Positions 10,776 to 49,701 of a stretch of 64,000 nt of DNA are shown here, piece by piece; within the stretch, counting starts at the first letter, position 1, and each line of letters opens with the position of its first letter. The stretch is from NCBI RefSeq assembly GCF_002113885.1, contig NW_018408906.1, positions 395,033-459,032 of the forward strand, read 5' to 3'. Both the position numbers and the translations under genes were made by a program. Origin of the DNA: Mizuhopecten yessoensis. Taxonomy: Eukaryota. The notes under the pieces were generated by a model. The model did no database searches, was not told the origin of the DNA, and saw only the letters and a list, made by a program, of their open reading frames with translations.

Positions 10776-13700
10776 TCTGTGAGGGTACATGCTAACATGT
10801 CCATATCTGTGAGGGTACATGCATGCATGTACATATCTGTGAGGGTTCATGCATGCATGTACATGTCTGTGAGGGTGGATGCTTGCATGTACATGTCTGT
10901 GAGGGTAGATGCTTGCATGTACATATCTGTGAGGGTACATGCTAACATGTACATATCTGTGAGGGTACATGGTAACATGTATATATCTGTGAGGGTACAT
11001 GCTTGCATGTACATATCTGTGAGGGTTATGCTTGCATGTACATATCTGTGAGGGTACATGCTTACATGTATATATCTGTGAGGGTACATGTTAACATGTA
11101 TATATCTGTGAGGGTACATGCTTGCATGTACATGTCTGTGAGGGTACATGCTTACATGTCCATATATTGAGGGTACATGCTTACATGTACATATCTGTGA
11201 GGGTCATGCTTGCATGTACATATCTGTGAGGGTACATGCTTACATGTACATATCTGTGAGGGTTATGCTTACATGTACATATCTGTGAGGGTCATGCTTG
11301 CATGTACATATCTGTGAGGGTGCATGCTAACATGTACATATCTGTGAGGGTGCATGCTAACATGTACATATCTGTGAGGGTTCATGCTAACATTTGTATA
11401 TCTGTGAGGGTACATGCTTGCATGTACATATCTGTGAGGGTTCATGCATGCATGTACATGTCTGTGAGGGTAGATGCTTGCATGTACATATCTGTGAGGG
11501 TACATGCTAACATGTACATATCTGTGAGGGTACATGCTAACATGTCCATATCTGTAAGGGTACATGCTTGCATGTATATATCTGTGAGGGTACATGCTAA
11601 CATGTACATATCTGTAAGGGTACATGCTAACATGTCCATATCTGTAAGGGTACATGCTAACATGTACATATCTGTAAGGGTACATGCTAACATGTCCATA
11701 TCTGTAAGGGTACATACTAACATGTACATATCTGTGAGGGTACATGCTAACATGTCCATATCTGTAAGGGTAGATGCTTGCATGTACATATCTGTGAGGG
11801 TACATGCTAACATGTACATATCTGTGAGGGTACATGGTAACATGTATATATCTGTGAGGGTACATGCTTGCATGTACATATCTGTGAGGGTTATGCTTGT
11901 ATGTACATATCTGTGAGGGTGTATGCTTACATGTATATATTTGTGAGGGTACATGCTAACATGTATATATCTGTGAGGGTACATGCTTGCATGTACATGT
12001 CTGTGAGGGTATATGCTTACATGTCCATATATGGAGGGTACATGCTAACATGTACATATCTGTGAGGGTTATGCTTACATGTACATATCTGTGAGGGTCA
12101 TGCTTGCATGTACATATCTGTGAGGGTACATGCTAACATGTATATATCTGTGAGGGTACATGCTAACATGTATATATCTGTGAGGGTACATGCTAACATG
12201 TACATATCTGTGAGGGTGCATGCTAACATGTACATATCTGTGAGGGTGCATGCTAACATGTACATATATGTGAGGTACATGCTTGCATGTACATATATGT
12301 GAGGTACATGCTTGCATGTATATATCTGTGAGGGTACATGCTAACATGTATATATCTGTGAGGGTACATGCTAACATGTATATATCTGTGAGGGTACATG
12401 CTAACATGTACATATCTGTGAGGGTGCATGCTAACATGTACATATCTGTGAGGGTGCATGCTAACATGTACATATATGTGAGGTACATGCTTGCATGTAC
12501 ATATATGTGAGGTACATGCTTGCATGTATATATCTGTGAGGGTACATGCTAACATGTATATATCTGTGAGGGTACATGCTTGCATGCACATGTCTGTGAG
12601 GGTACATGCTTGCATGTGCATATATGGAAGGTACATGCTTGCATGTACATATCTGTGAGGGTACATGCTTACATGTACATATCTGTGAGGGTTATGCTTA
12701 CATGTACATATCTGTGAGAGTCATGCTTGCATGTACATATCTGTGAGGGTGCATGCTAACATGTACATATCTGTGAGGGTGCATGCTTGCATGTACATGT
12801 CTGTGAGGGTACATGCTAACATGTCCATATCTGTGAGGGTACATGCTTGCATGTTCATATCTGTGAGGGTACATGCTAACATTTATATATCTGTGAGGGT
12901 ACATGCTTGCATGTACATATCTGTGAGGGTTCCTGCATGCATGTACATGTCTGTAAGGGTAGATGCTTGCATGTACATATCTGTGAGGGTACATGCTAAC
13001 ATGTACATATCTGTGAGGGTACATGGTAACATGTATATATCTGTGAGGGTACATGCTTGCATGTACATATCTGTGAGGGTTATGCTTGTATGTACATATC
13101 TGTGAGGGTGTATGCTTACATGTATATATTTGTGAGGGTACATGCTAACATGTATATATCTGTGAGGGTACATGCTTGCATGTACATGTCTGTGAGGGTA
13201 TATGCTTACATGTCCATATATGGAGGGTACATGCTAACATGTACATATCTGTGAGGGTTATGCTTACATGTACATATCTGTGAGGGTCATGCTTGCATGT
13301 ACATATCTGTGAGGGTACATGCTAACATGTATATATCTGTGAGGGTACATGCTAACATGTATATATCTGTGAGGGTACATGCTAACATGTACATATCTGT
13401 GAGGGTGCATGCTAACATGTACATATCTGTGAGGGTGCATGCTAACATGTACATATATGTGAGGTACATGCTTGCATGTACATATATGTGAGGTACATGC
13501 TTGCATGTATATATCTGTGAGGGTACATGCTAACATGTATATATCTGTGAGGGTACATGCTTGCATGCACATGTCTGTGAGGGTACATGCTTGCATGTGC
13601 ATATATGGAAGGTACATGCTTGCATGTACATATCTGTGAGGGTACATGCTTACATGTACATATCTGTGAGGGTTATGCTTACATGTACATATCTGTGAGA

Positions 13701-16490
13701 GTCATGCTTGCATGTACATATCTGTGAGGGTGCATGCTAACATGTACATATCTGTGAGGGTGCATGCTTGCATGTACATGTCTGTGAGGGTACATGCTAA
13801 CATGTCCATATCTGTGAGGGTACATGCTTGCATGTTCATATCTGTGAGGGTACATGCTAACATTTATATATCTGTGAGGGTACATGCTTGCATGTACATA
13901 TCTGTGAGGGTTCCTGCATGCATGTACATGTCTGTGAGGGTAGATGCTTGCATGTACATATCTGTGAGGGTACATGCTAACATGTACATATCTGTGAGGT
14001 TACATGGTAACATGTATATATCTGTGAGGGTACATGCTTGCATATACATATCTGTGAGGGTTATGCTTGTATGTACATATCTGTGAGGGTACATGCTTAC
14101 ATGTATATATTTGTGAGGGTACATGCTAACATGTATATATCTGTGAGGGTACATGCTTGCATGTACATGTCTGTGAGGGTACATGCTTACATGTCCATAT
14201 ATTGAGGGTACATGCTTACATGTACATATCTGTGAGGGTTATGCTTACATGTACATATCTGTGAGGGTACATGCTAACATATACATAACTGTGAGGATCA
14301 TGCTAACATGTATATATCTGTGAGGGTACATGCTAACATGTACATATCTGTGAGGGTGCATGCTAACATGTACATATCTGTGAGGGTACATGCTAACATG
14401 TACATTTCTGTGAGGGTGCATGCTAACATGTACATATATGTGAGGGTACATGCTTGCATGTATATATCTGTGAGGGTACATGCTTGCATGTATATATCTG
14501 TGAGGGTACATGCTTGCATGCAGATGTCTGTGAGGGTACATGCTTGCATGTGCATATATGGAAGGTACATGCTTGCATGTACATATCTGTGAGGGTACAT
14601 GCTAACATGTACATATATGTGAAGGTTTAGCTTACATGTACATATATGTGAAGGTTCATGCTTACATGTGCATATATGTGAAGGTTCATGCTTGCATGAA
14701 CATATCTATGAGGGTACATGCTTGCATGTACATGTCTGTGAGGGTACATGCTAACATGTACATATTTGTGAGGGTTCATGCTTACATGTGCATATATGTG
14801 AGGGTACATGCTTGCATGTGCATATATGTGAGGGTACATGCTTGCATGTGCATATCTGTTAGGGTAGATGCTTGCATGTGCACATATGTGAAGTTACATG
14901 TTTGCATGTACATATCTGTGAGGGTTCATGTTTACATGTGCATATATGTAAGGAAACATGCTAACATGTACATATCTGTGAGGATTCATACTTACATGTA
15001 CATATATGTGAGGATTCATGCTTGCATGTGCATATATGTGAGGGTACATGCTTGCATGTGCATATCTGTTAGGGTAGATGCTTGCATGTGCACATATGTG
15101 AAGTTACATGTTTGCATGTACATATCTGTGAGGGTTCATGTTTACATGTGCATATATGTAAGGAAACATGCTAACATGTACATATCTGTGAGGATTCATA
15201 CTTACATGTACATATATGTGAGGATTCATGCTTACATGTGCATATATGTGAGGGTACATGCTTGCATGTGCACATATGCGAGGGTACATGTTTGCATGTA
15301 CATATCTGTGAGGGTTCATGCTTACATGTGGATATATGTAAGGAAACATGCTAACATGTACATATCTGTGAGGGTACATGCTTACATGAACATATTCGTG
15401 AGGGCACATGCTTACATGTACATATCTGTGAGGGTTCATGCTAACATGAACATATCTGTGAGGGTACATGCTTGCATGTGCACATATGCGAGGGTTCATG
15501 TTTGCATGTAGTACATATCTGTGAGGGTTCATGCTTACATGTGCATATATGTAAGGAAACATGCTAACATGTACATATCTGTAAGGGCACATGCTTACAT
15601 GTACATATATGTGAGGGTAGATGCTTACATGTACATATCTGTGAGGGTACATGCTTACATGTACATATCTGAGGGTACATGCTTACATGTACATATCTGT
15701 GAGGGTCATGCTTACATGTACATATCTGTGAGGGTACATGCTTACATGTACATATATGTGAGGGTAGATGCTTGCATGTACATATCTGTGAGGGTTATGC
15801 TTGCATGTACATATCTGTTAGGGTACATGCTAACATGTACATATATGTGAGGGTACATGCTAACATGTACAAATATGTGAGGGTACATGCTAACATGTGC
15901 ATCTATGTGAAGGTTTAGCTTACATGTACATATATGTGAAGGTTCATGCTTACTTGTTCATCTATGTGAAGGTTTATGCTTACATGTGCATATATGTGAA
16001 GGTTCATGCTTACATGTGCATCTATGTGAAGGTTCATGCTTATATGTGCATATGTGTGAGGGTTCATGCTTACATGTGCATATGTGTGAGGGTTCGTGCT
16101 TACATGTGCATATGTGTGAGCGTTCGTGCTTACATGTGCATATGTGTGAGGGTTCATGCTTACATGTGCATATATGTGAAGGTTCATGCTTACATGTGCA
16201 TCTATGTGAAGGTTTAGCTTACATGTACAAATATGTGAGGGTACATGCTAACATGTACATATATGTGAAGGTTCATGCTTACATGTGCATATATGTGAAG
16301 GTTCATGCTTACATGTGCATCTATGTGAAGGTTCATGCTTACACGTGCATATATGTGAAGGTTCATGCTTACATGTACATGTGTGTGAGGGTTCATGCTT
16401 ACATGTGCATATGTGTGAGGGTTCATGCTTACATGTGCATCTATGTGAAGGTTCATGCTTACATGTGCATATATGTGAGGGTTCATGCTT
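10776..16490. repeat. 30-bp tandem satellite (TCTGTGAGGGTACATGCTAACATGTACATA), ~190 units with higher-order blocks
   Basis: Directly visible. Identical blocks recur at offsets 1189 (11868/13057) and 981 (12731/13712). Confidence 0.97.
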
Positions 16491-17673
16491 GTTATAAACA
16501 TTGCATCACCCTGTTATACACAACATGGTAATTATGAACACCGACATTAACAACCTGGTCATCCAGAGACATATACGCATACTACTGGTTTTATAAGTCT
16601 CTGGGAGATCTTTTGTTGCAGAAATAACTTTACTGAGCTAATGTTTGTACGTTTTTCATATAGGATGTTTAATGTTCTTGTAACTTAAATCTTGATATTA
16701 AATTTAACAGTCACCCTTGCCCAGTTCATGTCTTAACTGAAGGTACCTGTAGGTTTCAAGACATAATTGCTGTAAGTGCTAATATATTATTATATAATTG
16801 TATAGGAGAAGAAATGGTCAGCCATAAACAGGCGACCGATCAGAATTTTTAGCCTGCGATTACGGTCAGTTTTTGCAGACTAGGAAGGGGATAACAGCCG
16901 TTTTAAAGTTAAGGTATTTCATACACCGTCGATCATGTCAGTGTATATATTTTGTAATGGGCTCATAACTTTCCTCGAAATGAATAAAGTATGGAAGTCA
17001 CTTCATATACTCATGTCAAGAATAATGTCAATAATTACCTTCGCAGAAATGATTTGCCGAAAATATTGTTGATTTTGTCTGAAAAGTACTTTTTGATGCG
17101 GAATTTGAATGGCGCAAAATTGCAATGCATAATGAAATTAATGAAAAACTTACCTGTACATGCATTCCTGAAGTATCCATTTAGTGACTATTGCCGAGAA
17201 AAGTGTGAGAAAATGCTTCAAATCTCGAGAATGATGACATGTATTTTGGTTGGATATTTTACAATAACGCATAAAGCTAACAAGCCTTTTGATACAAGTC
17301 AAGCCATATTACCTGAGTGAAAACCTGTAGTGAATGGTGTACAGGTAAAATCTCACGTGCTTTGCATGCTTTTTTCCAACCTCAGTCAGCTTTGTTCGCT
17401 AATTTGTGCTCAGTTGTGATTTATTCAGGGGAAATATATGCCATTATTCTGGAGATTTTTCTCGACAAATGCATCTCCATGGACATCCAACCTTATGATA
17501 TTTACAAGTTTAAATGGATTTTTTGCTAAATTGTGACTTTTATTCAGCTTGGAAAATGAACATAAAAAGTGAGTTTTTCATCAGTTATTGAATATTTTTT
17601 CTGAAATTTAGTGTGCATGTTGGAGGAGGATTTTTTTGTAACAGGGATTTTTTAATGCTAACAGAATGCATTA

Positions 17674-22788: not shown

Positions 22789-25094
22789 GGTGTCTTCCCA
22801 TTTATCCAACTTCTGAAAAAAGCTATTCCCATTTATCCAACTTTATGTTTTATGCCCTGTGGGTATGTTTGTTTAGTAGTATATTTTAATCATTAGGTGA
22901 AATAACCAAGACAAATTGTTCCATGGATAGAGGGAAAAGTATCATAGAGTGGATAAATTTATTTAATTTTAATTCATTTTGAAAGGTGAAAGTATGTATA
23001 AAATATTCATGAGAAATATGAACAGTGTTAAAGAAGCACCCAAGCCTTTTTCTACTAATTTATTCATAAATTTTGAATACTACTCACTAAGTATCCCAAG
23101 CTAGTTTTTAGCTTATAAGCACTGACCCACTGACAAAATTCATTCTTCAAGTTTGACCATGGCGAACGCACAAGTAAGAGTAGACTACATTCGACATGCT
23201 AGAGGCCACTACTTAGCTGTAAACGGCTACAGATATGTGATTAAGACCAGAAAACAGGGTAGAGATGCAGAACTAGCCTACTGGAAGTGCGCCGAGAAAG
23301 ATTGCCCAGGCACAGCCAACACCAGAGACAACATGGTAACCAGATTTCCTAGAGACCACAACCACCCGACAACTCGTGCTGACATAGATGCCAAGAAATT
23401 TCTAGCAACACTCAGAGAAAAGGCAGCCAAAACTCTGGAACCACTACCCGCATTGTACGACAGCGAGATCATCAAATTCAGAAACAGAGAATGGGACGAT
23501 CACACACACCAGGTCGTTGAACAGATACCAACTTTCGTCAGTACCAAATCAGCTATGTACCGAGAACGCAACAGTGAACTACCACCACTACCAACCACAC
23601 GTGATGCCATTAATCTCCTGGGAGAATGGCAAGAGACTACTACAGGAGCACAATTCCTACTAGCAGATGATGGTGACCACAACAAGATCCTGGTATTTGG
23701 TACTACAGACAACCTCCGCCATCTAAGTAACGCTGACATGGAACTTTTTACGCCAGTCCTGTACTTTTCACCCAGCTGTACACACTGCATGCACTCATAG
23801 ACGACGAGATGTACCCACTAATATTCGCCTTCCTACCTGACAAATGCCAGATCACCTACCAACGCCTATTCGAGATCGTTAAGACAGCAGCAGCAAACAA
23901 CAACACACCACTCAATCCAACCACTATATTCCTCGACTTCGAGTCTTCAGCCCGTAACGCAGCAGAGACAGTCTTTCCACAAGCGTCGATCAAAGGTTGT
24001 CTATTCCACTACTGCAAACGCATATGGAGAAAGGTACAGAAACTTGGACTAGCAGACCAGTACACCAACGACAACCTACTCAACCTACATATAAGACGAG
24101 CTTCAGCATTGCCACTAGTCCCCATCAACCAAGTAGATGATGTATGGTTCCACGCAATTGAAGACTACGAGACCGATGACGCAAAGATCACCAAGTTCAA
24201 CGACTACGTTACTGAGCAATGGATCGGGATGGAGACAGCAAAATGGAACCACTACTCAACAGTTGGACCCAGAACAACAAACCATTTAGAAGGATGGCAC
24301 CACAAACTCAACAACCAACTTCACAGAGCACACCCAAACCTCTACGTCATCATCGAAAAACTCAAGCACACTCAAGCAGCAAATGAGATCCGACTTATCC
24401 AGTATGCAGCTGGTGGCACTAGAAAGACAAGAAAGCTGAAATACAGAATCCTAGACTCCAGACTTCAGCGACAGAAACAACGACTCATTCAAGGGGAAGT
24501 TGACATCTACCAGTATACAGACACAGTGTCACGCCTGCTGAAACTTCAATGAACTGATATGACTCTATAATATTCGATTGATATAGTGCTTTGCTTAATT
24601 CAAATATTTTAAATATGAAATTTACTATACATTGTAACTTTTCTATCATGTAAAATGATTCATATTCCTATCATCTTATTTCTAGTGCTTTATATCAATT
24701 TATGAAATAAATATTATTTTGTATCATTTTGTATATTTAATAATTAATATGTCTGTTAATAATATATATGTCTGATATTATTTGAATAAATATATTGAAA
24801 ATAGAAATTAGTCTTATTGTGAAAGCATATATCATAACTACAGAATCAATAAAAAAACCCACACAAATAAAAACAAAATGAAGCATTCAAATCAACTTAA
24901 TAGAAATAACTTTGAATATAGATACACATTTCCAAAAGGACTTAATTTCTGTATCATATTTTTAACCCAACACTTGACCCAAGCTCCAATTAGTGTTTGT
25001 TGTTTTAACAATATACCCTATTCCCACTTATCCAACCCAAACTTTTTACCTGTAGTACCTATTTTTCAAAAAGTTGGATAAATGGGAATGAACC
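22789..25094 (+). mobile_element. Full-length Mutator-like (MULE) DNA transposon
   Basis: Imperfect TIRs GGTGTCTTCCCATTTATCCAACTT / AAGTTGGATAAATGGGAATGAACC. An 8-bp TSD GTAAATTG lies at 22781-22788 and 25095-25102, and there is an internal transposase. Confidence 0.9.
23159..24552 (+). pseudogene. FLYWCH + MULE DDE transposase, frameshifted at ~23737
   Basis: FLYWCH: YWKCAEKDCPG...HNHP. After the frameshift: GTFYASPVLFTQLYTLH...YPLIFAFLPDK...DFESSARNA...GCLFHYC...TTNHLEGWH. The D of DGTF has been removed by the deletion. Confidence 0.88.
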
Positions 25095-28000: not shown

Positions 28001-28904
28001 TATATATATATAGGATAGTACACCCGTTTTCATTTCATTTGAGATTTATGAAACGAGTGTAAGATTTTTTTAGAAAATTCGTGACGAGTTTCATAAATTT
28101 CTTATAGCTATGAAATGAAAACGAGTGTAAGATCCTTTTTATCACATAATCAACATTTGTAGCATTTATTCGTGTTAAACGACAATTTTCATGCAACCTA
28201 GAAATGTAAAAAGACGCCATTTTGACTCCAGTGCGTAAGTCTGTGACGTCATGTACTTGTCCTAGGCGTGACGTGACAATTGAAACAATTGAAACTTGCA
28301 ACCAGTCACAGGGCTGATAGGTCATATTATATGGGTTAATATGCAAACAAAATATGACATGGGTATATTCACTGGATAACTCAGTATATTATGTGATGAA
28401 ATGAAACATCCACTACTTTTAAATGAAAAAAAATCGGCAAAAAATAACAATGTTCAATTTAGAAAGTCTTTACAATGTATGTTCCTGGTCTTATTTTTTC
28501 TGTACTATATTGTCAATTATAGTTTAAAAAGAACAGTACAGGAATGTACTTTCATATGCTTGGTGTGACTTGCGCTTTATACAGATGGCGTGAATTACAT
28601 TAGCTACGTATACTTATACAGATTATCGCTTCTTAAGCAATATTGTATATTGTTAGCATTTTTTTTAATTGACGGTATCGAACGCTCCGAAGCTGCACTT
28701 GAAAGTGTCGTTTGAAATGAAAATTAACGCCTCTCGTGTTGCCATGCCATGATCGATTACCATATTTGTTTCAGATATTGAACATCTTTTTTTGCAATAA
28801 TTAAGAATCGTAATGATAAATATCAACTTGTGTGTGATCATGGTCACATCCATCCTCGATTTCCAGGGGTTACGATCACCTACGCTCTCTAGAGAGCGAA
28901 AGTG

Positions 28905-29787
28905 AGCGTAACCCCTGGATGTCGAGGATGGGTCAACCCCTGGATATCGAGGATGGGTCAACCCCTGGATGTCGAGTATGGGTCAACCCCTGGATGTCGA
29001 GGATGGGTCAACCCCAGGATATCGAGGATGGGTCAACCCCTGGATATCGAGTATGGGTCAACCCCTGGATGTCGAGGATGGGTCAACCCCTGGATATCAA
29101 TGATGGGTCAACCCCTGGATGTCTAGGATGGGTCAACCCCTGGATGTTGAGGATGGGTCAACCCCTGGATGTCGAGGATGGGTCAATCCCTGGATATCGA
29201 GGATAGGTCAACCCCTGGATGTCGAGTATGGGTCAACCCCTGGGTGTCGAGGAGGGGTCAATCCCTGGATATCGAGGATAGGTCAACCCCTGGATGTCGA
29301 GTATGGGTCAACCCCTGGATGTCGGGGATGGGTCAACCCCTTGATATCGAGGATAGGTCAACCCCTGGATGTCGAGGACGGGTCAACCCCTGTATATCGA
29401 GGATGGGTCAACCCCCGGATGTCGAGGATGGGACAACCCCTGTATATCGAAGATGGGTCAACCCCTGGATATAGAGTATGGGTCAACCCCTGGATGTCAA
29501 GGATGGGTCAACCCCTGGATATCAAGGATGGGTCAACCCCTGGATGTCTGGGATGGGTCAACCCCTGGATATCGAGGATGGGTCAACCCCTGGATGTCGA
29601 GGATGGGTCAACCCCTGTATATCGAAGATGGGTCAACCCCTGGATATCGAGGATAGGTCAACCCCTGGATGTCGAGGATGGGTCAACCCCTGGATGTCGA
29701 GGATGGGTCAACCCCTGTATATCGAAGATGGGTCAACCCCTGGATATCGAGGATGGGTCAACCCCTGGATATCGAGGATGGGTCACC
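28905..29787. repeat. 25-bp tandem repeat (GGATGGGTCAACCCCTGGATRTCGA) x~35
   Basis: Directly visible and homogeneous. Confidence 0.95.
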
Positions 29788-30746
29788 TCAAAACAAAGGA
29801 TCACGAACTGACGCTCAATAATGGAAACGTCCATTGCAACATGCATTATTTACATATCTTTGTTTTGTTTGTGTATAATATTATCAGTGAAATAAGACAT
29901 CATAACTTTATGTCTTGTGCCACTTACACCAACTTTTGTATCTGCCAAAGTACTACTACAATAAAACCGCAACTTTCAAAATCAAGCGCGGATTTCTCAA
30001 TAGAAATCTTCCGCTCTGAATACATTCTTTAAGAATGAAAGGTTGGCGATTTTGCTTTAATGAAAGTGAACTGTTTGATATCATATTTTCACAGTACTAG
30101 TTCCAAAGTCTAACAATATCGCTAAACATCATAAGTTAAATGATATATAATATACGTAATACAAAGTCAGGAAATAAAAGCCACTCACCAACACTAAGTT
30201 TGTTTCACAACCTAATGAAACCTTACAAAGCTGTGGTACCCTCACAGCGCAAATAAAAATTAAATACAACATGGATCAAAACCAAACCCCCCCCCCCCCA
30301 AAAAAAAAAAAAAAACAGAACAAAACATGAAATGACGCATAATGATCAACAATGTAAATGAAGTAAGGTAGCGGCCGCATTGACATATAATATGATCTTA
30401 CCTTTCTGTATTACATGGATATAAGGGACAGATTGACGTCATTTCCTGTGATACCATGTAACGCCTACATGCTAAAGTGTTCACACATATAATGAATTAA
30501 TATACACAGGTATATACTATGTTTTTATGATATATAACGACACCAGATTAAAGTCAGCGATACCTTAGTTTCATTTCTCACAGAGGTAGGATCCATAGAC
30601 AATAGAATCCGACATTTCCCTGTGGTCGTAACTATTTCCTTTTTATGAATGTAATCGAGAGTGATGTACAACTCTCAATGTTGTATGCTTAACGAAGTGA
30701 TATCTGCCATGGAAATGCATGTACAATCAATTTTTCCAGAACTTTT

Positions 30747-30907
30747 TTAATCGCTCCAGTAGGGACACTTCGCGCATGCATAGTGTTCCTGACATCGCCC
30801 GGAAAGTCCAGGAGCCTCCAACTGAGTACAGTTGTTCTCAATGCACTGGAACAACATCTTCGTTCGCTGCTTTTGACCAACGATTGGTGGATTGGCAGGC
30901 ACCGAGT
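30747..30907 (-). CDS. ZNFX1-derived gene, last coding exon (8): A20-like zinc finger CIENNC-x11-CQEH
   Basis: Acceptor TTTTTCTCAG, phase 1. Reads DSVPANPPIVGQKQRTKMLFQCIENNCTQLEAPGLSGRCQEHYACAKCPYWSD*. Confidence 0.7.
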
Positions 30908-31410: not shown

Positions 31411-31545
31411 CTGTCTCCGATTCTATCTGAATCCTATCGTTTGTCTTTTTCAATTCTGTTTCTACTTCCGGTGCGGATTGTGAGTATTTCGGTCTAACAG
31501 GCTTCACATCTGGTCTTCGGTATTCTTCGTATGAAGACGTAATTT
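31411..31545 (-). CDS. ZNFX1-derived gene, exon 7 (phase 1-1, 135 bp)
   Basis: TTTTAG acceptor, GTAGGT donor. Open frame ITSSYEEYRRPDVKPVRPKYSQSAPEVETELKKTNDRIQIESET. Confidence 0.72.
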
Positions 31546-31958
31546 CTAAAATTGAAACAAAGACTTGCAATATTTTTCGTTAAAACGCAAGTGTCATTTC
31601 AGTTTATTTTGAAATGGAGAGTGAATTAACAGAAATCCAAACCCTAGCGTTCATCTTGTACACTGTAAGCCATGTATATGATCTATATGTAGCAAAAGGG
31701 ACTTGGGACAAAGAAATACGAACTTTTCTGAGGTATTCACATACTTGATCTTCGTATAAATTTCGATGAAAATCTGTTGCGAAATGAAATCAGTAGAGTC
31801 ATGAATGTATGTATCGCCTTGTTATAGGACGGAACTTTTTTGGGGAAAAAATAAACAACAAACAAAATGCATTTTGATTTAGAACAATGTAAAATGGAAG
31901 CTCGAAATTAGAGAATATGGACGAGGTGGATGAAACACAATAGCAGATGAAGACCTAC

Positions 31959-32156
31959 CAGTTTTAACGTCCGTTTGATGAGTAAAGTACGCCTTTCTCC
32001 ATTCTGAGTCTGCTGGACGTGACGTTGGTTTTGCAGCATGTTCAACAGGTTTAGGGTCTGTCAACTGATAGCCGGCGGGTTTGCTTTGGAAACGGCTAAT
32101 CCTATCCCTAACTGACCTCGTTTCAATTTCCATAGACTCTTCAGATCTTGTAGTTT
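31959..32156 (-). CDS. ZNFX1-derived gene, repeat exon 6 (GYQLTDPKPV)
   Basis: GATAG acceptor, G|GTAGG donor, 198 bp, phase 1-1. Paralogous to exons 4 and 5. Confidence 0.68.
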
Positions 32157-32296
32157 CTATCAATTTAAATTTTGTGTAAATGTGAATAAACTTACTTTCG
32201 GTTGATTTAATATATCAAACGCCATCGATATTTGTACGCGTCATTTACGACATCATTTCATGATTTTGAAACGTAATAATGACAATGAAAACCTAC

Positions 32297-32509
32297 CCCT
32301 CTTAACGTCCGTTGTAAGGATAAAGCACGGCGGTTTCATTCCTACGTCTGCTTGTTGTGACGATGTGTTTGCAGCTCGCATAACAGGTTTAGGATCTGTC
32401 CACTGATAGCCAGTTGGGTTGTAATGGTCACCATCGATCACTTCTTTTCTAGAGGGGACACTCATTTTCCTAACCGCCTCCTTATTGATGTCCATTGCCT
32501 CTTCAGCTT
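32297..32509 (-). CDS. ZNFX1-derived gene, repeat exon 5 (GYQWTDPKPV)
   Basis: GATAG acceptor, G|GTAGG donor, 213 bp, phase 1-1. Confidence 0.68.
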
Positions 32510-32793
32510 CTATCCATTAAAATTTTGAAGATGGAAAAATATTTTTTAGTTATTTTATAAATCAAACAACATATCGATATTCATTGGTTATATTTTCCAC
32601 AAAGAATTGGGATTTTGCATAATAATAATAACCGTTGAAATCCTATCCATGTTGACGTCCGTTTGAGAGGGGATGAACACCTGTATTAGTTCTGTGTCTA
32701 TAAAAGAATTTAATTATATGCTTTTAGTTATCAAACCGATGTTATCGATATCCAGGGTTCCTTTTACTTTAACAATGATCAATGATGACCTAC

Positions 32794-33015
32794 CAAGCTT
32801 CCTGTCGGTTTGAGAGGTAAAGGAAGTCTTTCTTAATCCGGCGTCTCCGTGTGTAACATATGTTTGCCCTACCGGAACAACAGGCTTAGGGTCAGTCCAT
32901 TGTAACCCGTAGGAGTTGATTTGGGCACGGCTTATCACATCTTCTCTGGTGGAGGGAGCCATGCTCCTAATGGATTCTCTATTCGCTTCCGTAACCTCTT
33001 CTGATTCTATAACTT
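32794..33015 (-). CDS. ZNFX1-derived gene, repeat exon 4 (GLQWTDPKPV)
   Basis: GATAG acceptor, G|GTAGG donor, 222 bp, phase 1-1. Confidence 0.68.
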
Positions 33016-33178: not shown

Positions 33179-33328
33179 CTTTTGTTTCTGTGGTTGCCCT
33201 GTCGTTAGGGATGTTCAGAATGGATAGAAGATCTGCTCTATGAAGACACCGAGGAACTACACCTGAATAAGGTGATGTTCTCAAGCGTTGTAGAGATTCT
33301 CTGTCGTACGATATCCTTACTGATGAGC
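33179..33328 (-). CDS. ZNFX1-derived gene, exon 3 with 4E-BP-like motif RISYDRESLQRLRTSP
   Basis: TTTGTACAG acceptor, AG|GTATT donor, 150 bp, phase 1-1. Reads GSSVRISYDRESLQRLRTSPYSGVVPRCLHRADLLSILNIPNDRATTETK. Confidence 0.72.
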
Positions 33329-33731: not shown

Positions 33732-35374
33732 CTGAATTGGTCCTCTCCGATGTATTCATCTTGCGGTCAGTGCACTTCTCGAAGCAAGGAACATGTAAGC
33801 GTCCTTGGAAACAACCTCCACATGTTCCAGAACAGGGATGACCGCAATCTAATTTAGTAGTGCACTTTTCAGTGCAAGAGAAGTCTTCAATTCTTTGGTA
33901 ACATTTGCACTGTATGAAGTGTCCACAAATCAATTTGCGCTGAATGAGCTCTGGACATTGAATCTGGTGGGTGTTGTATTCTTTACACTTTCCACAAGTT
34001 CCGCTGCATATGTGACCACAAATCAGCTTTTTCTCGCATTTTGACCGACACTTGAAACTGTGGGGATCCTGATGACATGGGCCTAATTGCTCGTGCCTGC
34101 AAACTGGAATAGTCTTGATAATGTTCTTCATGCATTTCCCACACTCTTCCCAGCATTTCTTAGTGCAAACATGTCCTTTATCGCAAACCTGAGCACATGG
34201 CTTCAAACAACGGTATTTCTGATGAGCACTGTCAAAGATATGACAATATTGTTCACAAACATGACCACAAGGTAGACGTGTTTCACATGGTGTGGTACAG
34301 CCTCCATTTGGTGTCTCATTGAATTGCAGGTCCTTCAGATCAGGCAGTATCGGAAGTTCTCTGAAATTGTTAGGGGGAGGCAATGATTCCATGTCTCTAT
34401 GATTCCGTCGGCCACCAGGTTGAATGTTTTTATCTCTTCTTTGGTTGTCAATGTCCTGTACAAGTGTTTTCATAATTGTAGATACATCATTAATCAATTC
34501 CAAAATATCTGGATTCTGTTGTAAATTGAATGTATGGTCCTCAGCAATAGCATCTAACATCAACACAGCACTACTAACAGTGTGGACCTCCTGTGGCATT
34601 CGTTGCATCAACTCTTTCATTATCTTGCAGACATCTTGAATTATGCACTGAAGATGGTAAGGGGGCATCACAGCAATCCTGGACTTGATTTTTGCAAGGA
34701 ATGTGGTCACTTGAAGCATCATGACATTCTCTTGAACCATTAATCCCACTAATTGTAACTTGCTGTGGCTTTTAGAAGAGGAGCAAGCTTTTCCTAGTAC
34801 AGATAGAAGCAATCTACTCCAGTCGATCTGCATGTTAATGTTCTTTAATAGAGTTTGAAATCCACTACTTTCCAACAGTAATTCCATTAGAACATCATCT
34901 GAATTGGTCTTTTCACTGAGCTCACTGAGTTTCCTGTAGCCAAACATTCTTGGTGGTCTGGAACGAGTATCATTTCTTCTTGGTCTCGAACTATCACGGT
35001 ATCTAGCATTAGTAGCATCTTGTACATCCTCATTTCTGTTTGGTACCGTATCCAATCTACTGAGAGAAGAATATCTTCGGAGGTCAGCAGCTCCTCGAGT
35101 CAATCCACCAGATGCTCCTCGAGTCAATCCACCAGATGCTCCTCTAGACCCGCCTCTTCCACCCCTACTGCCTCGTCTTCGGCCATCTCCTCTATGTCCT
35201 CTCTCTGCATTACCGCCTCTGCTTTCACTTCTACTCTGAGAAGACTCAGGGTTTCTTTGGTGTCCTCCTCCTGGACCGCTGGATCTGCCTCCTTGTCTGC
35301 TATTCCTTCTTGTACCATTTGTATTTTCTGTTTCATCGTCATCAAGATTGAGAATTCTTAGTGGGCCTGTTCTG
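33732..35374 (-). CDS. ZNFX1: ZNFX1-like (NFX1-type zinc finger-containing protein 1 paralogue), large exon 2: RGG-rich region, helical N-domain and NFX1 zinc fingers; helicase absent
   Basis: FGYRKLSELSEK..DDVLMEL and PPNNFRELPILP are ZNFX1 N-terminal motifs. GGCTTPCETRLPCGHVC and the repeated L.CGH.C are NFX1 fingers. The frame is open upstream of the ORF-track start to the acceptor CTAACATTTCAG (phase 2); the donor is G|GTAGG. Confidence 0.85.
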
Positions 35375-35473
35375 CTGAAATGTTAGACGTTCTATGTTCA
35401 GAGGTGTTGAGTGCTTGAGCAAGTCAACTCACACAGACATTGTTCTAAAGATAAGTGTAAATATTATTACATC

Positions 35474-37690
35474 TGATTTTCTGTCAGATCCTAGGATATG
35501 ATTACTGTCACCCCTAGGGTATGATTTCTCTGTCAACCCTTAGGCATGGTTTCTCTCTCACCCCTAGGATATGACCTCTGTCACCCCTAAGTTATGATTT
35601 CTCTGTCATCCCTAGGATATGGTTTCTCTGTCACCCTTAGGGTATGGTTTCTTTCACCCCTAACGTATGATTTCACTTTCATCCCTGGTATATGATTTCT
35701 ATCAACCCTAGGGTATTGTTTCTCTGTCACTCATTCAGGTATGATTTCTCACGCTCTCTAAAACGATTCCTCTGTCAACTCCTAGGAAATGATTTCTCTG
35801 TCACCCCTGGTATATGATTTCTAGCAACCCTAGGGTATTGTTTCTCTGTCATCCCTAGGGTATGATTTCACTGTCACTCACTGTGTAATGATTATCCCTG
35901 TCAGCCCCTAGGGTATTATTTTTCTGTCAGCCCCTAGTGTATGATTTCTCTGTCAGCCCTAGATATGCTTTCTGTCAACCCTAGGGTAAAGTTTCTCTAT
36001 CATCCCTAATATATGATTTCTGTCACCCCTAGTGTAGGGTGTCTCTGTCACCCCTAGGTTATGATTTCTGTCAACCCTAGGGTATGGTTTCTCTGTCAGC
36101 CCTAGGATATGCTTTCTGTCAACCCTAGGGTAAAGTTTCTCTGTCATCCCTAATATATGATTTCTGTCACCCCTAGGGTAGGGTGTCTCTGTCACCCCTA
36201 GGTTATGATTTCTGTCAACCCTAGGGTATGGTTTCTCTGTCACCCCTAGGATATGCTTTCTGTCACCACAAGGTTATGATTTCTCTGTCACCCCCTTATA
36301 TATGATTTCTGTCACCACAAGGTTATGATTTCTGTCACCCATAGGATATGATTTCTGTCACCCCTAGGGTATGATTTCTCTATCACCCCTAGGATATGAT
36401 TTCTCTAACCCCTAGGTTATGATTTCTCTGTCACCCCTAGTATATGATTTATGTCACCCCTTCTCTGTCACCCCTAATATATATGATAACTATCAACCCT
36501 GTGGTATGGGTTCTCTGTCATCCCTTCAGGTATGATTTTCTCACCTCTGTCACCCCGAGGGTACTGTTTCTATGTCACCTTCTAGGGTATGATTTCTGCA
36601 TCTGACGCTAGGGTATGATTTATCTGTTACCCATTAGGGTATTTTTTTCTGTGCTATTAGGGTATGATTTATCTGTTACCTATTAGGGTACGATTTTTCT
36701 GTGTTACTAGGGTATGATTTATCTGTCACTTACAAGGATACGATTTTTCTGTCACCCCTCGGGTACAGGGAATGATTTCGCTGTCACCCATAGGGTATGA
36801 TTTATCTGTTACCCACTAGGGTTTAATTTTTCTGTGTTACAAGGATATGATTTCTGTCAACCCCTAGGATACGATTTTTCTGTCACCCCCTCGGGTACAG
36901 GGGATGATTTCGCTGTCACTCACTGTGGAATGATTTTCTCTGTCAGTACCTTAGTTATGATTTCTCAGTCACCCAATAGTATGGAATGATTTTCTCTGTC
37001 ACTCACTGTATAATAATTATCTCTGTCAGCCCTTAGGGTATGATTTATGTGTCACACCCTAGGGTTTGATTTCTCTTGTTACCTTCTAGGGCATGATTTC
37101 TGTGTCACCCCACAGTGTATGACTTCTTTGTCACCCCCAAAGGTATGATTTCTCTATCACCCACCAGAATACGATTTCTCTGTTACCTGCTAGCCTCTTC
37201 CCCCCCCNNNNNNNNNNNNNCCCCAACCCCTACCCCAACCCAACCCAAACCCAACCCAGGTATGATTTCTCTGTTAGCCTCTAGGGTATGATTTCTATGT
37301 GTCCCTCTAGGGTATGATTTCTCCGTCACCCTCTAAGGATATGATTTCTCTGTCATTCTTTAGGGTATGATTTCTCTGTCACTCGCTAGGGAATGATTTC
37401 TCTCCCTTTCTCCCTAGGGATTGATTTCTCTCCCTTTCCCCCAGGGAATGATTTCTCTCCCTTTCCCCATAGGGAATGATTTATCTGTCACCCCCTTTGG
37501 TACGATTTCTATGTCACATCTAGAGGACTTTTTCTCTGTCTCTCTGTCTCTGGTACGATTTCTATGTCACACACTAGGTTGTCATTCCCTAGGGTATGGT
37601 TTCTCTGCAACCACCTTTGAGTAGGTTTTCTCTCTCTTCCCCTAGGGAATAATTTCTCCACCCCATGTGGTACGATTTTTCTGACACCCC
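35474..37690. repeat. 23-25 bp minisatellite in intron 1 of the ZNFX1-like CDS
   Basis: Same unit family and order of variants as 1-4600, but shorter. Confidence 0.95.
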
Positions 37691-37813
37691 TATGTATAGT
37701 ATTCCTTAAATCGTTGTCAAACCGTTACTGTCATATTCTGACAAAGACCTTTTAAAAATATACATTTCTAACGCGTTAAAACATGTATGTTGAACTTGTA
37801 TTTAGCCACTCAC

Positions 37814-37851
37814 CTGCCAGTATTGTTGCCATACTCATCGTCAGAATCCAT
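37814..37851 (-). CDS. ZNFX1-derived gene, first coding exon (MDSDDEYGNNTG)
   Basis: Exon 37814-37906 is bounded by TTCCAG and GTGAGT, with an in-frame TAG before the ATG. Its phase 2 matches the acceptor at 35374. Confidence 0.7.
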
Positions 37852-44130: not shown

Positions 44131-44344
44131 GTTCAATTTATGAAATTTAAAAGAAAATTGATGGAGTAATTTTAATCATATTTCTGAACTAGTACTATTG
44201 TGTATGAATTATATCTACTTTCATTTTATAGGGTTTGTCCGGTTATAAGAAGCACAAATATTATTAAGTCATATAAAATTTCACTAATTGGTTTCTCAAT
44301 TTTCTTCATTTTCCAGGCACGTCCAACTGAAAAACAGTTCCACC

Positions 44345-45026
44345 ATGTTTCCTCGTGGTGTGTGTACAAGGTTTAGCACATCACAACTTCACCTGGTGTT
44401 GAAGCAGTGTAAATCACTGACAGGTCAGTTTCACACGGGATCTGCAGAATCATCTGCAGCTGAGAAACAGCATGAGAGGCAGCAAGGAAATCAGCTTGAA
44501 AATCAGCAGGATAATCAGCAAGAGACGAAATCTGATTCAGATTTAGCTACCAAGGAGAATTCTGAACAAGTTCAGGTTCTCACCGAGGAACAAATGTCTT
44601 CCATACAACCTCAAAATGAAGCAGCCTCAAAACATCCAGATCTTTGGAAAAATCCAATAGATATGAGAATTCTTCCTAAAAAATATAAATTCACAGACGA
44701 GGAAAAGAAAATGTTTCAGCTGTCAACCTACATATTTCACGAAATCGGAGAATCGGGCAAAAACAAAAGAAATTTTCTGAAAGCGTTAGCGATATACAAG
44801 AAACGGGAGAAGGTGTACAATAGGGGCCTGGTGGAGTTTCTATCGACTGGTTTGGATAACATGAAAGAATGGGGTGTACATAAAGACAAAGAAGTGTACA
44901 AGGCTATGATAGGCACTATGCCCCAAGAGAAGTTTCTTCCAAAGTCAAAATGGATGGCCGAGCTGGGACACTATCCCAAGCAACAACAGTGTGCTATAGA
45001 CATTCTGGAAAAAATGCAAAATAATG
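44345..45026 (+). CDS. ECSIT: ECSIT coding exon 1 (mitochondrial presequence-like N-terminus)
   Basis: RGLVEFLSTGLDNMKEWGVHKDKEVYKAMI..MP...HYPKQQQCAIDILEKM matches the ECSIT family. Donor G|GTAAG. Confidence 0.92.
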
Positions 45027-45724
45027 GTAAGACTGATGGAAAGAAGTTCAGCAACCGTTTTCAGGGATCAATCTAGACTTGATTCACTATACCGTTTATG
45101 GGTAGTTCCCCTACAGAAGAAAATTCCCCTGTTCTTTGAAATTCCCCCTATGTGCTACAAAACTCCCTTATTTCAACAAGAAAATAGCTGTTTTTTCTTC
45201 ACAATATTTCCCCTATATATGTTTTCTTTAAAGTTCAACAGTTAAAATGCATAATACTGCATATATACATTTTCTCCACATAATTTTAACAAAAATTCTA
45301 CGATTTTAAGCTTAAAATTGTTTAAAAATTGAAATATACTGCACACATGTATATCGGACAAAACATTTATCTTTTACCTTCGTGACGCTATATAGCCTTG
45401 TATCAAATTTTAATTCCCCCCAAATCTTAAAAAGGGTAGTTTCCCCTAAAACCTAGATTGATCCCTGGTTTTAATTATTTTTCTGATACTTAAAGTGAAG
45501 TACGTATACTGTGAAAGCAGATATTTTCGTGGGGCCCATATTTTGTGGTTTTCCAACAAAACACCATTTCATGGGTACATGATTACGAGTATCCACTCGA
45601 ACGGAGAATTGTTTTATATATCAAACTTTTATTTTATTCATTGACATATGGATTTGTGAATGAAGATTACCCATGAAATCAGTGAAATTAAAAAACCCAT
45701 GACAAATAGTGATTTCACAGTATA

Positions 45725-46025
45725 CAGTCAAACCTCGTTATCTCGAAGTCGGCGGGATCGTTGGGAAACTTCGAGCTATCCGAGTATTCGAGTTAAGATT
45801 GTGAATCTTAAGAAACTTCGAGGTAAGCAATATTTTTATGTAGGATTTACGTTGTTGGGACCGATATTTCACTTCAGGATATCTGAGTTTTTCGAGTTTT
45901 CAGAGTTCGAATTATCAGAGTTTTTATTACTAAGATTAAGAAGAGTTTTGGCCGGGACCGATGAATTACTTCGAGTTAAACGGGGTCTTTGAGTTATACG
46001 AGTTCGAGATAACGAGGTTCGACTG
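45725..46025. mobile_element. Tc1/mariner-type MITE in ECSIT intron
   Basis: TIR CAGTCAAACCTCGTTATCTCGAA / TTCGAGATAACGAGGTTCGACTG with TA TSD. Confidence 0.85.
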
Positions 46026-46158
46026 TATATGTATTGTACCTTATAAATTATGTTTGTTAAATGTTTCAGTGTAATAGGTACTCCCGACGCCCCTGTATTA
46101 ATTTCTTTGGAAGCATTTCAGATATCATTGTACAAGAATGAGTTTTCCGTGGTTGCAG

Positions 46159-46382
46159 GTGTAATACCTGACGAGAAGATGGAGGAAATGATCGAAGAAA
46201 GGTTCGGCATCAGCAGCTACGTGATGAGGAAGTACACGCGAATGTTGTACTGGATGCCAAAGTTCCGCCACGCTAATCCTTATCCTGTGCCCTGGCAACT
46301 AACTGATGACCCCATACAGCTGGCCATTATAGCACTGAAGCGTATGGCCATCGACCTTAACAACAAAATCACAGTCTGGAAG
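46159..46382 (+). CDS. ECSIT: ECSIT coding exon 2
   Basis: GVIPD...FG..SYVMRKYTRMLYWMPKFRHANPYPVP. Bounded by TTGCAG and AAG|GTAAA. Confidence 0.92.
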
Positions 46383-47175
46383 GTAAAAGTAATCATGTAG
46401 TACAGGATCGATCCCAAGTCGGATGGCAGGTTGGGTCAGCGGGCATGTGAATCTTTTTGTCTTTTGCAAAATTTTCCAACATTTGTCAAAATTAAAAAAA
46501 TGGACAAACGTTATTGGAATTCGATACTAGTGTATAAAAAACATTCATATTTAAGTAAAAAACGGTCCTGTTTTGGGTACCATACACTGACATATACATA
46601 GTTTAGTGAAGGACATGATAACAAGGTTTAATTCCATTATGCTTATCATTATAATCTGTGTGAAATTGACTGCAGTATTTGTTTTATATGCTAAGGTGCT
46701 CTTTTAATCAATAAACAATTTACATGTGATATGATCCAGCTGGGGAAATCCTGGATATTGAGAGTAGTGGGCCATTTTCAGCAAGTTTTCGTCAATTTCA
46801 AAATTAAGAGAAGCCATTCTGTGTAAAATTTAAAAAAAAAATGGAACATGGACGGGTCAATTTCAGTTTTGAGGGGTCATGATCAATGGCCCCATGACCC
46901 CCTCAAAGATTATCACAAAATGCCTGGAATGTATCACAATGTATGTATTGATATACAGAAGGAATGTGTTGTGGTGTTATCATAGGGAAAAGGTGCTAAC
47001 TTCGAAAGAAAGATGTCAGAATGTTTTCAACTTTAATCGTATACAGTCAAACTTTAATGTTTCGAACTTTGCGGGAACATTGGGGGAAAATTTGAATCAT
47101 CAGGACATTGATTCAGGACTGCTGAACATCAAACGTCTTTATATCCTCTACCTAAACATGGAATGTGATTCTTAA

Positions 47176-47258
47176 CCCTTTCACCCCTATGTAACTTTAG
47201 TAGACTCTACCATGCATTGATCTGGACGAGTCCATTATGGTCTACAGTGTTGAAAGGG
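47176..47258. mobile_element. 83-bp piggyBac-like MITE
   Basis: TTAA-CCCTTTCA...TGAAAGGG-TTAA. Confidence 0.75.
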
Positions 47259-47719
47259 TTAAGTGACGAAACTTAGTCCATGAATATTAAAGTGACAACA
47301 AGAGTTCACATTTAATTAGACATTATAGTTCAATGGTGATCTTATCCAAGTCGCCATTTCTTTGTCCATTATTTAAATTGTTAAAATGAACACACAGTTT
47401 GTTTGTGGTACAATGAATAGTATCGGCCTGTCGGTTAGAATGTGCAGTATCTTCCTATATATTAAAGTACCTAGCAGATCCATAAAAAAATAAGGTTCTT
47501 GAAAAAATTGTGATACAGCAATATTTCAGTTGTTTTACAATGTGATATGCCTGTGTATTGCAATATACTGATTTTCCAATTAATTGTGCACCAGCCCTTA
47601 ATATCACAGAGCATTATTTTTCTGTGGAAAGTGACAGTGGTGTAGTAATACATTACACCTTCGTAATTTGTTTTTCGATAAAAACTAATATATATTTTCT
47701 ATTAACCTTTACTACATAG

Positions 47720-47933
47720 ACTGCGGAAGTTGAGGAAATTCCTCTGGAGGACACATTCATAGTTAGTGCCCAGAGTCCTGATCAGGCAGAGCTGATCAGC
47801 GCCCATTCCGTGGATGTCCCCCTGGTGGTGGAAGGTAGTTACAGTGTCTGGCTTCGTCACAAACAGCAACACTACTTTGTGCTAAAGTCCGACCAGGGTA
47901 GACCTCATGCCCCTGCGGGAGATGTGGAAGACG
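47720..47933 (+). CDS. ECSIT: ECSIT coding exon 3 (missed by the ORF track)
   Basis: TFIVSAQSPDQAELISAH...LVVEGSYSVWLRHKQQHYFVLKSD. Bounded by CATAG and G|GTGAGT with consistent phases. Confidence 0.9.
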
Positions 47934-48989
47934 GTGAGTAAGATCTGATGGATGTAAATTTGAAAAATTCCCCCAAAAATGACCGGTCAAGTATAAACGA
48001 TTTCCTTATAAATAGAGTTTCTTTAACTATTAACCTATTGCAGGTATTGATTTTTATCAAACAAGCTACAAATCCGATTGAAACCAAACTAAAAATAAAT
48101 AAATAAAGAAGCAACTGAACTTGAAAGATGTCAATATGTATTTTAATGGGTTCCCTTATCAGAAGTCTATCGGAATACAGTGTTATGCAGGTTTCCAGAG
48201 CATGTCTCTGCCACTGTTTCATGAGTGTGCATAAAGATTTTTTGCAGATACATGTAGGTATATCATAAAATGGGTCATTGTGACTTCTTTTTGACCTTTG
48301 ACCTTGACCTGAAGTGCTAAAATACAGTTTAATATAGTTTCCTGGATCACTTATCATCTCAGCCACTGTTTCATGAAACTAAGGAAGGTGGTGTGACACA
48401 TCTTAAAATGGGTCACTGTGACTTCTATTTGATCTTTGACCTGGACTTCATGTGGTAACATACTATGTCATACAGTTTTCTTGAACAAATCTTAGCCACT
48501 GTTTCATGAAACTTAGGAAGGTGGTGTGACACATCTTAAAATGGGTCACTGTGACTTCTATTTGATCTTTGACCTGGACCGCATGTGGTAACATACTATG
48601 TCATACAGTTTTCTGACACAAATCTCAGCCACTTTTAAGATGGTTTGTCAGATCCTAAAATGAGGTCACCATGACCTGAAAAAGGTTAAACAGGTTTCTG
48701 GAGCATATCTTGGATACCGTTTCATGTATTGATATGAGGGTTCTTCATGGTCAAGCAGTATGTTGTGTAATATAATTATATAATTTGTTCAACTTCAATA
48801 TGACTCAAGTTTACCATACAGAGTGAGCTTAAGGTTTTCAGAGGATATCTTGGCTACAGTTTTTAAGGTATGCACATCAGACTAGATGTGAAGGTAAGTT
48901 ATTCTGGGGCAATGTGTAATGTAATTAAATTAACTTTATTTACTTTACAACAGTTATGAAAGAAATTATTTCAACTTAAATAAATCACT

Positions 48990-49170
48990 CTGTTTGGCCC
49001 GGGTGTTAGCGTGCAGGGCTTCTTAATGTGGGAGGAAACTAGAGTATGGGAAGAAAACCCACATGGTCGGGCCGGTGACCCCATACCTTTTCACGTCCGA
49101 TCGGGGAATCAAACCCAGGGTGCCTTGGTTAAAGGCAATTGCACTATCCACTGTGCCAAACCAACCACCC
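48990..49170 (-). mobile_element. tRNA-derived SINE in ECSIT intron
   Basis: A/B-box remnants on the minus strand plus a GGAAACTAGAGTATGGGAAGAAAACCCAC core. Confidence 0.6.
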
Positions 49171-49441
49171 ATGTAATTAAATGAGGCTCATGAGTTCATC
49201 GTTCGAATGTTTGACCTTGACCTCAAGTACCAAGCATATATATAGGAACAGATATGCAGGGAGCTATCCACTATGCCCACGCTTCAAGTAAAACCTAATT
49301 TAAATATTAATTCAAAAGCACAATTTCGCAGAATTTCCATGAAACATGTTAAAAGTTATTAGTACTGTAAAATAATTGCTCCCAACAACTATAGTGACAT
49401 ACAGTTCTAAAATGTAAGTTCTTTTTCTTTTCTATGGTCAG

Positions 49442-49701
49442 ATTCTGAGGTGGACTGGACAGGACTGAACCCTTACTTAACGGAGAACGAGGACGACCAG
49501 GCCGTACTGGTCCCTCCGAGTATCCACTGTCAGGACGATGGCACCGTGATGGCCACTTGCATCACAGGGACCTCTTCTCGCGATTCTGTGGTCACCTGGA
49601 TACGCTACCTCCAACAGAGCAATCCCAAACTAGAACACATCCCTATTCTGTTCTCTATCAAAACACACACCGGGCAGCTAGATGTTCGACCACCAACCTA
49701 G
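49442..49701 (+). CDS. ECSIT: ECSIT coding exon 4 (last); total CDS 1380 nt, 459 aa
   Basis: SIHCQDDGTVMATCITGTSSRDSVVTWIRYLQQSNPKLEHIPILF, then TAG stop. Confidence 0.92.

Follow-up and report, generated by a model that had tools for sequence, protein, structure and literature searches.

The window, a 64,000-nt stretch of a Mizuhopecten yessoensis contig, contains one copy of a ZNFX1 gene on its minus strand. In the NCBI annotation of Mizuhopecten yessoensis, this copy encodes P0001, a protein of 918 aa that includes the exon of interest here, the motif exon. A second copy of the motif exon lies 52 kb away in an intact gene, which has a 2,012-codon open frame and encodes P0002 (2,567 aa). 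The two ZNFX1 copies form a head-to-tail repeat and are about 89-99.6% identical by block. The coding exons of the window copy are as follows.

37814..37851 (-), first coding exon (MDSDDEYGNNTG), the start of P0001, with its sequence carried by loose RNA ends
33732..35371 (-), large ZNFX1 exon with an RG-rich start, the armadillo domain and the first NFX1 zinc fingers (human ZNFX1 9q9z, E 4.7e-28)
33179..33328 (-), motif exon, symmetric (phase 1-1), with a 4E-BP-like module (splice sites, RNA joints, Pfam eIF_4EBP E 0.0078, below the cut-off)
32794-33015, 32297-32509, 31959-32156 and 31411-31545 (-), four more phase 1-1 tail exons with repeats of the W-T-D-P-K-P type (RNA joints)
30747..30907 (-), last coding exon with a Cx4Cx11Cx2H finger, followed by a 1-nt frameshift specific to the window copy (sequence; downstream joint in RNA run X1)

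The host gene is a ZNFX1 paralogue. The large exon of the window copy aligns to two separate parts of human ZNFX1 (9q9z), residues 208-438 and 1365-1450, that directly adjoin each other here. P0002 and its orthologues in Pecten maximus (P0003) and Argopecten irradians (P0004) match PF25396, PF13086 and PF13087 and contain the ZNFX1 domain, the UPF1-like helicase and the NFX1 zinc fingers. Walker A, the DEAx-type motif and the motif VI residues are intact in all three. Like human ZNFX1, an SF1 helicase with Miz/Z-RING and RZ parts, these proteins combine an armadillo domain, the helicase and the zinc fingers with a Miz-like Cys pattern (R-F and C-P-x-C in the Miz/Z-RING part). In the helicase-core tree, they group together at just 81/65 support and are 85% identical there.

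The RZ finger is unlike that of human ZNFX1, in which C1849, H1853, C1869 and C1872 are zinc ligands and C1860 and H1881 are catalytic (available text of bioRxiv 2025.10.14.682297). P0002-P0004 keep the C, the H and the CxxC, four likely zinc ligands, around a loop that is four residues shorter and contains no Cys, and there is no later His. When they are aligned with RZ-bearing homologues, none of the three orthologues has a counterpart of the catalytic Cys and His. PF20173 (RZ) matches neither P0002-P0004 nor C5579, the contig of the two copies, and has nine matching places elsewhere in the genome. The ZNFX1 paralogue on C1714 keeps the full RZ catalytic motif, and several RZ exons lie behind one gene on that contig. 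RZ starts also appear altered in the paralogues at L023, L024 and L025 (G000 C3248, C5228 and C76693), and RG-rich frames seemingly lie near the ZNFX1 paralogues in L023, L024 and L026. There are 13 ZNFX1-domain matches in the genome, so one copy would be free to change its output. At seven of these 13 loci, the 10-kb stretches searched (one per locus) contain no 4E-like motif, and 3' exons may lie beyond them.

Human ZNFX1 also lacks the tail of the scallop proteins, about 540 extra residues that contain the 4E motif, repeats and a Cys3His finger. A protein search queried with the C-terminal portion of the intact reading frame gave 10 matches. P0003 and P0004 have the same tail, and it is absent from the seven non-scallop proteins among the matches. 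Tail-bearing proteins were found in three genera only, with one protein cluster each. The W-T-[DES]-[PA]-K-P repeats occur three to four times per protein (31411-33015 (-), P0002 2251-2520), mostly one per phase 1-1 exon. They are conserved in the three genera and correspond to no Pfam family. Upstream of the repeats, a P-x-P-x-P-R motif is also conserved, and it is deleted in the window copy. The terminal Cx4Cx11Cx2H finger (30747-30907 (-), P0002 2526-2567) has 23/47 invariant positions and no Pfam match, and its spacing is reminiscent of A20-type ubiquitin-binding fingers.

The motif exon is real and spliced. It runs from 33328 to 33179 on the minus strand (150 nt), with the pyrimidine-rich AG acceptor ttttctttgtacag and the donor gtattt, and is translated as (G)SSVRISYDRESLQRLRTSPYSGVVPRCLHRADLLSILNIPNDRATTETK. 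Both of its splice joints are present in the RNA contig sets X4 and X1, from runs mapped to the window, and one X4 contig of 2,482 nt spans the motif exon and neighbouring exons. The upstream joint also occurs in X5 and X6 and the downstream joint in X6, two of the four runs that were mapped to the neighbouring copy. The other two runs mapped to the window, raw reads numbering only 4 and 2, have no reads on the exon. An earlier note made from the sequence had described a symmetric exon without an ATG and had made its proposal depend on transcription. The splice sites and RNA joints confirm the phase 1-1 ends, the exon contains no ATG, and spliced RNA contigs carry it.

Three elements can be distinguished within the exon, numbered from the Tyr of the motif.

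33279..33308 (-), canonical-motif helix Y0 D R+2 E S L+5 Q+6 R L R+9, with a helix predicted at residues 9-16 of the free peptide
33264..33275 (-), elbow-loop signature S+11 P+12 x S+14 at the position of 4E-BP1 Ser65-Pro66, invariant in all four scallop sequences
33219..33248 (-), candidate non-canonical site C+20 L+21 ... D+25 L+26 ... I+29, with C, L, D and L invariant

The four scallop sequences are those of the window copy, the intact copy, Pecten maximus P0003 (RISYDRESLVQLGSSPLSHVFLPCL) and Argopecten irradians P0004 (RISYSREYLMELRSSPLSQVPLPCL). Tyr at 0 and Leu at +5, the core of the canonical eIF4E-binding motif, are invariant in all four. The hydrophobic position +6 (phi) is polar in Mizuhopecten, with Gln in the window copy and Lys in the intact copy. 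It is hydrophobic in Pecten (Val) and in Argopecten (Met), where YSREYLM is fully canonical. Position +2, where the consensus has Arg or Lys, is Arg in all four sequences. Position +9, where it has Arg, Lys or Gln, is Arg in three and Gly in Pecten. Pro+12 and Ser+14 of the elbow, which characterise bipartite 4E-BP-type motifs, are present in all four. In the downstream segment, where such regions have a hydrophobic non-canonical motif at a distance of 12-30 residues, C+20, L+21, D+25 and L+26 are conserved, and a helix is predicted at residues 30-37 (pLDDT about 73). The free peptide as a whole is predicted as helix, loop and helix with a mean pLDDT of 71. A fold search with this model gave no match at E 0.001, 49 residues being too short to inform, and an ESM Atlas search gave no usable match.

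Two details of the earlier note hold in part. It had likened an R-x-SP followed by a downstream Pro to 4E-BP1. The Ser-Pro withstands comparison among species, and the Pro-Arg likeness does not, as it is a derived change of the window copy, Pro standing at +19 in all three full-length proteins. It had also singled out a hydrophobic patch, LLSILNIP, as a possible non-canonical site. The preceding D-L and the I..N pair align across species, and the remainder of the patch does not.

The core YxxxxL-phi alone is meaningless, because it occurs 137 times in the six frames of the window, and the peptide of the window's motif exon departs from it with its Gln. The extended pattern Y-x-[RK]-x2-L-x3-[RKQ]-x-[ST]-P-x-[ST], which was composed after the motif was already known, occurs once in the window and once in 100 simulated windows. 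Without its last residue, it occurs four times in 100 simulated windows.

The motif is more conserved than most of the tail. Among P0002, P0003 and P0004, 15/25 of its positions are invariant, compared with 117/537 (22%) over the whole tail, 27/170 in the linker before the motif and 0/16 in the remainder of the motif exon. The terminal finger is the sole tail part that is as conserved as the motif. Retention of Tyr and Leu in orthologues was the earlier note's own test, and both residues are kept in the two other genera. The two local copies of the motif exon differ at 12/147 nt (10 nonsynonymous, 2 synonymous), compared with 15/400 in the flanking intron. These changes spare Y0, R+2, L+5, R+9, S+11, P+12 and S+14. 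Variation among copies and alleles (L005:1257-1403 against window 33180-33326) is clustered in the linker and at the exon end, with at least three linker versions.

Two deletions separate the window copy from the intact copy, and both have 3-nt microhomology at their joints.

34310..34316 (-), joint of a 3186-nt in-frame deletion of the whole helicase, present in two of the four runs mapped to the neighbouring copy, with 30 letters on its shorter side
33770..33772 (-), joint of a 2752-nt deletion (1734 coding nt and a 1018-nt intron) that keeps the frame, present in three of those four runs, with 27 letters on its shorter side

The 2752-nt deletion takes out the later zinc fingers, the Miz/Z-RING, the RZ remnant and part of the tail. 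P0001 therefore retains the armadillo domain, a few zinc fingers and the tail and lacks the helicase, Miz and RZ. Alternative splicing was rejected as the cause of the missing helicase, since the ends are non-GT-AG, the joints show microhomology and they occur in genomic-looking runs. Pure misassembly is unlikely, yet the shorter sides of the joints have just 27 and 30 letters, and the assembly itself may have been built from X15. RNA runs X4, X1 and X5 show the helicase-bearing form, and among the sites listed, X4/X1 variant sites match the intact copy at 29/40. In X5, the exon with Gln at phi is spliced to upstream sequence of the full-length type, and the X5 motif exon is a mosaic of the window and intact copies.

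The two copies may be tandem paralogues, or a pair of alleles assembled one after the other. The window copy can best be read as a duplicate in decay or a deletion allele and by itself probably matters little, and the working protein is likely the intact P0002, 52 kb away. It is unlikely that the window copy is a selected short form whose armadillo domain pairs it with the intact protein, as a decoy or an extra eIF4E-binding arm. Such a form would agree with the frame being kept by both deletions (1 in 9 by chance), with the presence of both joints in the spliced-RNA run X6 and with the role of the armadillo domain as the homodimer interface in human ZNFX1 (available text of bioRxiv 2025.10.14.682297). 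Against it, the window copy has 23 derived amino-acid changes, six of which stem from the terminal frameshift, and the intact copy has seven (51 differences, 21 not polarised). Neither joint is listed in X4, X1 or X5.

Several searches relate the motif to the 4E-BPs. Pfam eIF_4EBP matches the window frame and P0002, P0003 and P0004 at 16.5, 14, 13.6 and 20 bits, all below the family cut-off of 24, and the E values in the three proteins of about 2,500 aa are 0.049, 0.066 and 0.00068. A profile of the four scallop motif sequences gave 11 matches among 1.84 billion proteins. Two belong to the query family, eight are repeat proteins and one is a true 4E-BP (E 1.9e-5). The eight repeat proteins, P0133 only provisionally, were rejected as noise, with weak summed stretches of at most 13.2 bits each. 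LRR kinase matches from another search were also rejected as noise. In a PDB search with the motif, 8/9 matches are 4E-BP1, Thor or Mextli, with a best E of 0.0016 and an E of 1.2 for Mextli. A profile from Pecten and Argopecten only ranks the two Mizuhopecten copies first and the scallop 4E-BP third (E 0.004) among about 248,000 residues in which the 4E-BP locus was deliberately included. The likeness to the 4E-BP1 motif claimed by the earlier note is thus backed by profile searches and by Tyr and Leu conservation in two genera. A YDRDFLLQMQ stretch at L014 (G000:C5037:103772-103873, -) is a weak eIF_4EBP match and probably belongs to another eIF4E-binding protein of the genome.

Tyr, Leu, Arg+2, Pro+12 and Ser+14 are the features singled out in the extended eIF4E-binding consensus and the elbow loop (PMC4573856 and PMC8558276, available portions). 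The scallop R+2, S+11, P+12 and S+14 agree with this consensus and loop (PMC4573856), which supports the eIF4E-binding reading. Gln at phi need not abolish binding, because Drosophila Thor, solved on eIF4E (PDB 4ue8), has Lys there. DDX3X is also reported to bind eIF4E through a motif that ends in Arg (PMC9642913, available portion). For the scallop clade, eIF4E-family binding of some kind is probable, and confidence is lower for the polar-phi forms.

The module shares with the 4E-BP family (EIF4EBP1-3, Thor; PF05456) the layout R-I-x-Y-x-R-x-x-L...R-x-S-P-x-S with its elbow Ser-Pro, a hydrophobic segment 20-30 residues further on, and a motif that starts a phase 1-1 exon, as it does in the scallop 4E-BP. 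Unlike the 4E-BPs, it consists of 49 residues inside a helicase of 2,500 aa and is not a small free protein. It has no upstream TTPGG phospho-sites and no Thr-Pro at +16, and its phi is polar in Mizuhopecten. With a score below 24 bits, and as part of a large protein without the upstream phospho-sites, it is not a 4E-BP, but is predicted to work like a 4E-BP module.

The scallop 4E-BP gene provides a comparison for the origin of the exon. Its motif opens a 186-nt phase 1-1 exon with an acceptor two codons nearer the Tyr. This shared layout, with acceptors two codons apart, is only suggestive. DNA likeness of the motif exon to 4E-BP exon 2 is not significant (73/500 shuffles score as high), and two protein searches of the genome for a close donor gene returned just the two ZNFX1 copies. 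Whether the exon arose by shuffling is about evenly balanced, because the other tail exons are likewise phase 1-1 and the DNA likeness is insignificant.

The best explanation, which is modestly favoured, is that the full-length protein loads on RNA by its helicase and the tail motif takes eIF4E from eIF4G, repressing that RNA. The motif helix would contact eIF4E dorsally and the CL..DL segment laterally, and eIF4G would thereby be displaced. The helicase would aim the repression at RNA that is viral or otherwise marked, in the way that human ZNFX1 targets such RNA with ubiquitin, and the Ser-Pro at +11/+12 may act as a phospho-switch. In human ZNFX1, K63 ubiquitin is reported to drive viral RNA entrapment, which silences its translation (bioRxiv 2025.09.05.674436, available text). 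Human ZNFX1 thereby holds viral RNA in aggregates that ubiquitin drives. The scallop ZNFX1 paralogue has probably given up RZ catalysis in exchange for capturing eIF4E on the RNA it binds. An antiviral role of the scallop paralogue would follow by analogy from work on human and oyster ZNFX1, including the reported induction of oyster ZNFX1 genes by herpesvirus (bioRxiv 2026.05.15.723513, available text). A fuller version is offered tentatively, as a possibility that is more doubtful. In it, the protein is an RNA-guided 4E-BP whose helicase senses foreign RNA and whose RZ ligase site has been lost, a captured 4E-BP exon imposes cap-dependent translation arrest on nothing but the bound RNA, and the helicase-less neighbour tunes the response by pairing through the armadillo domain.

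Some observations count against repression by eIF4E capture. Phi is polar (Gln or Lys) in all Mizuhopecten versions seen, position +9 is Gly in Pecten, all Pfam scores are below the cut-off, only three genera have the tail, and the exon changes faster than the flanking intron. Besides repressing, a 4E-binding motif may serve for tethering or activation.

Binding of eIF4E for storage or activation, by which capped mRNA would be tethered to ZNFX1 stress or germ granules, is quite unlikely. As in 4E-T, Mextli and DDX3X, a short (here putative) eIF4E-binding motif lies within a disordered stretch of a protein that binds RNA. DDX3X is in addition a helicase whose reported motif also has a polar phi (PMC9642913). 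There is no kinship to these three proteins beyond the motif, and the scallop host is unlike them an innate-immunity SF1 helicase. Storage or activation would suit the long, polar, repeat-rich tail, the reported link of ZNFX1 to stress granules and mRNA stability (bioRxiv 2025.09.05.674436, available text) and the bipartite mode shared with Mextli, which is thought to stimulate translation (PMC4573856). However, a motif with Arg at both +2 and +9 is an effective competitor of eIF4G according to the same article (PMC4573856, available portion), and the closest sequence matches are repressor 4E-BPs.

It is decidedly improbable that the exon is kept for another partner or fold, or that eIF4E binding has decayed in Mizuhopecten, leaving the likeness as a relic or a coincidence. 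The polar phi in all Mizuhopecten alleles seen, the Gly at +9 in Pecten, the sub-cut-off Pfam scores and the fast change of the linker would be expected under this explanation. However, it is the eIF4E-contacting and elbow-forming residues that are invariant, the match to a 4E-BP has a library-wide E of 1.9e-5, and Lys at phi is tolerated in Thor.

Selective recruitment of the repressor 4EHP in the manner of GIGYF is highly improbable, although a second IF4E-family gene lies on C5463 and is presumably 4EHP. The module resembles the 4EHP-binding region of GIGYF1/2 in its helix, linker and hydrophobic downstream segment, and the 4E-BP1 and 4E-T motifs are also able to bind 4EHP (PMC5538437). Unlike GIGYF1/2, the module has Ile in place of the Tyr at -2 that the 4EHP motif YXYX4L-phi requires, and the aromatic residue of GIGYF at +9 is replaced by Arg in three of the four sequences, including that of the window, and by Gly in the fourth (PMC5538437, available portion). 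The specificity for 4EHP that the earlier note had suggested is not borne out by these residues. Its 4E-BP likeness stands, and it had missed the ZNFX1 host gene, the intact neighbouring copy and the deletions.

The 4E-BP likeness of the module is well supported, the ZNFX1 architecture around it is new, and its eIF4E function is predicted. At the level of titles and abstract openings, no report of an eIF4E-binding motif in ZNFX1 was found among the papers listed, although the survey of Blasi et al. 2022 may mention these tails in its full text. The word eIF4E is absent from the available text of the two human ZNFX1 preprints (bioRxiv 2025.10.14.682297 and 2025.09.05.674436). If the preferred reading is true, repression by eIF4E capture would be a second output on the ZNFX1 sensor, tying RNA sensing directly to cap-dependent translation in an animal that has no adaptive immune system. 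It would also be a possible example of an effector gained by shuffling a symmetric exon, and it would offer a structurally variable candidate locus in a farmed species. The binding question is cheap and sharp, with one peptide and one partner of 216 aa.

Other features of the window surround the ZNFX1 copy. An ECSIT gene (Pfam ECSIT_N, ECSIT_C) at 44288-49701 (+) is head to head with it and lies beside the end of the duplicated block. Between 22790 and 25090, FLYWCH and MULE transposase frames (23126-24552) are flanked by inverted ends, and this element is missing from the matching stretch by the intact copy. Long tandem-repeat arrays occur at 10700-16600, 28900-29790, 35470-37700 and 57000-58200, the first of which is situated where the two ZNFX1 copies meet.
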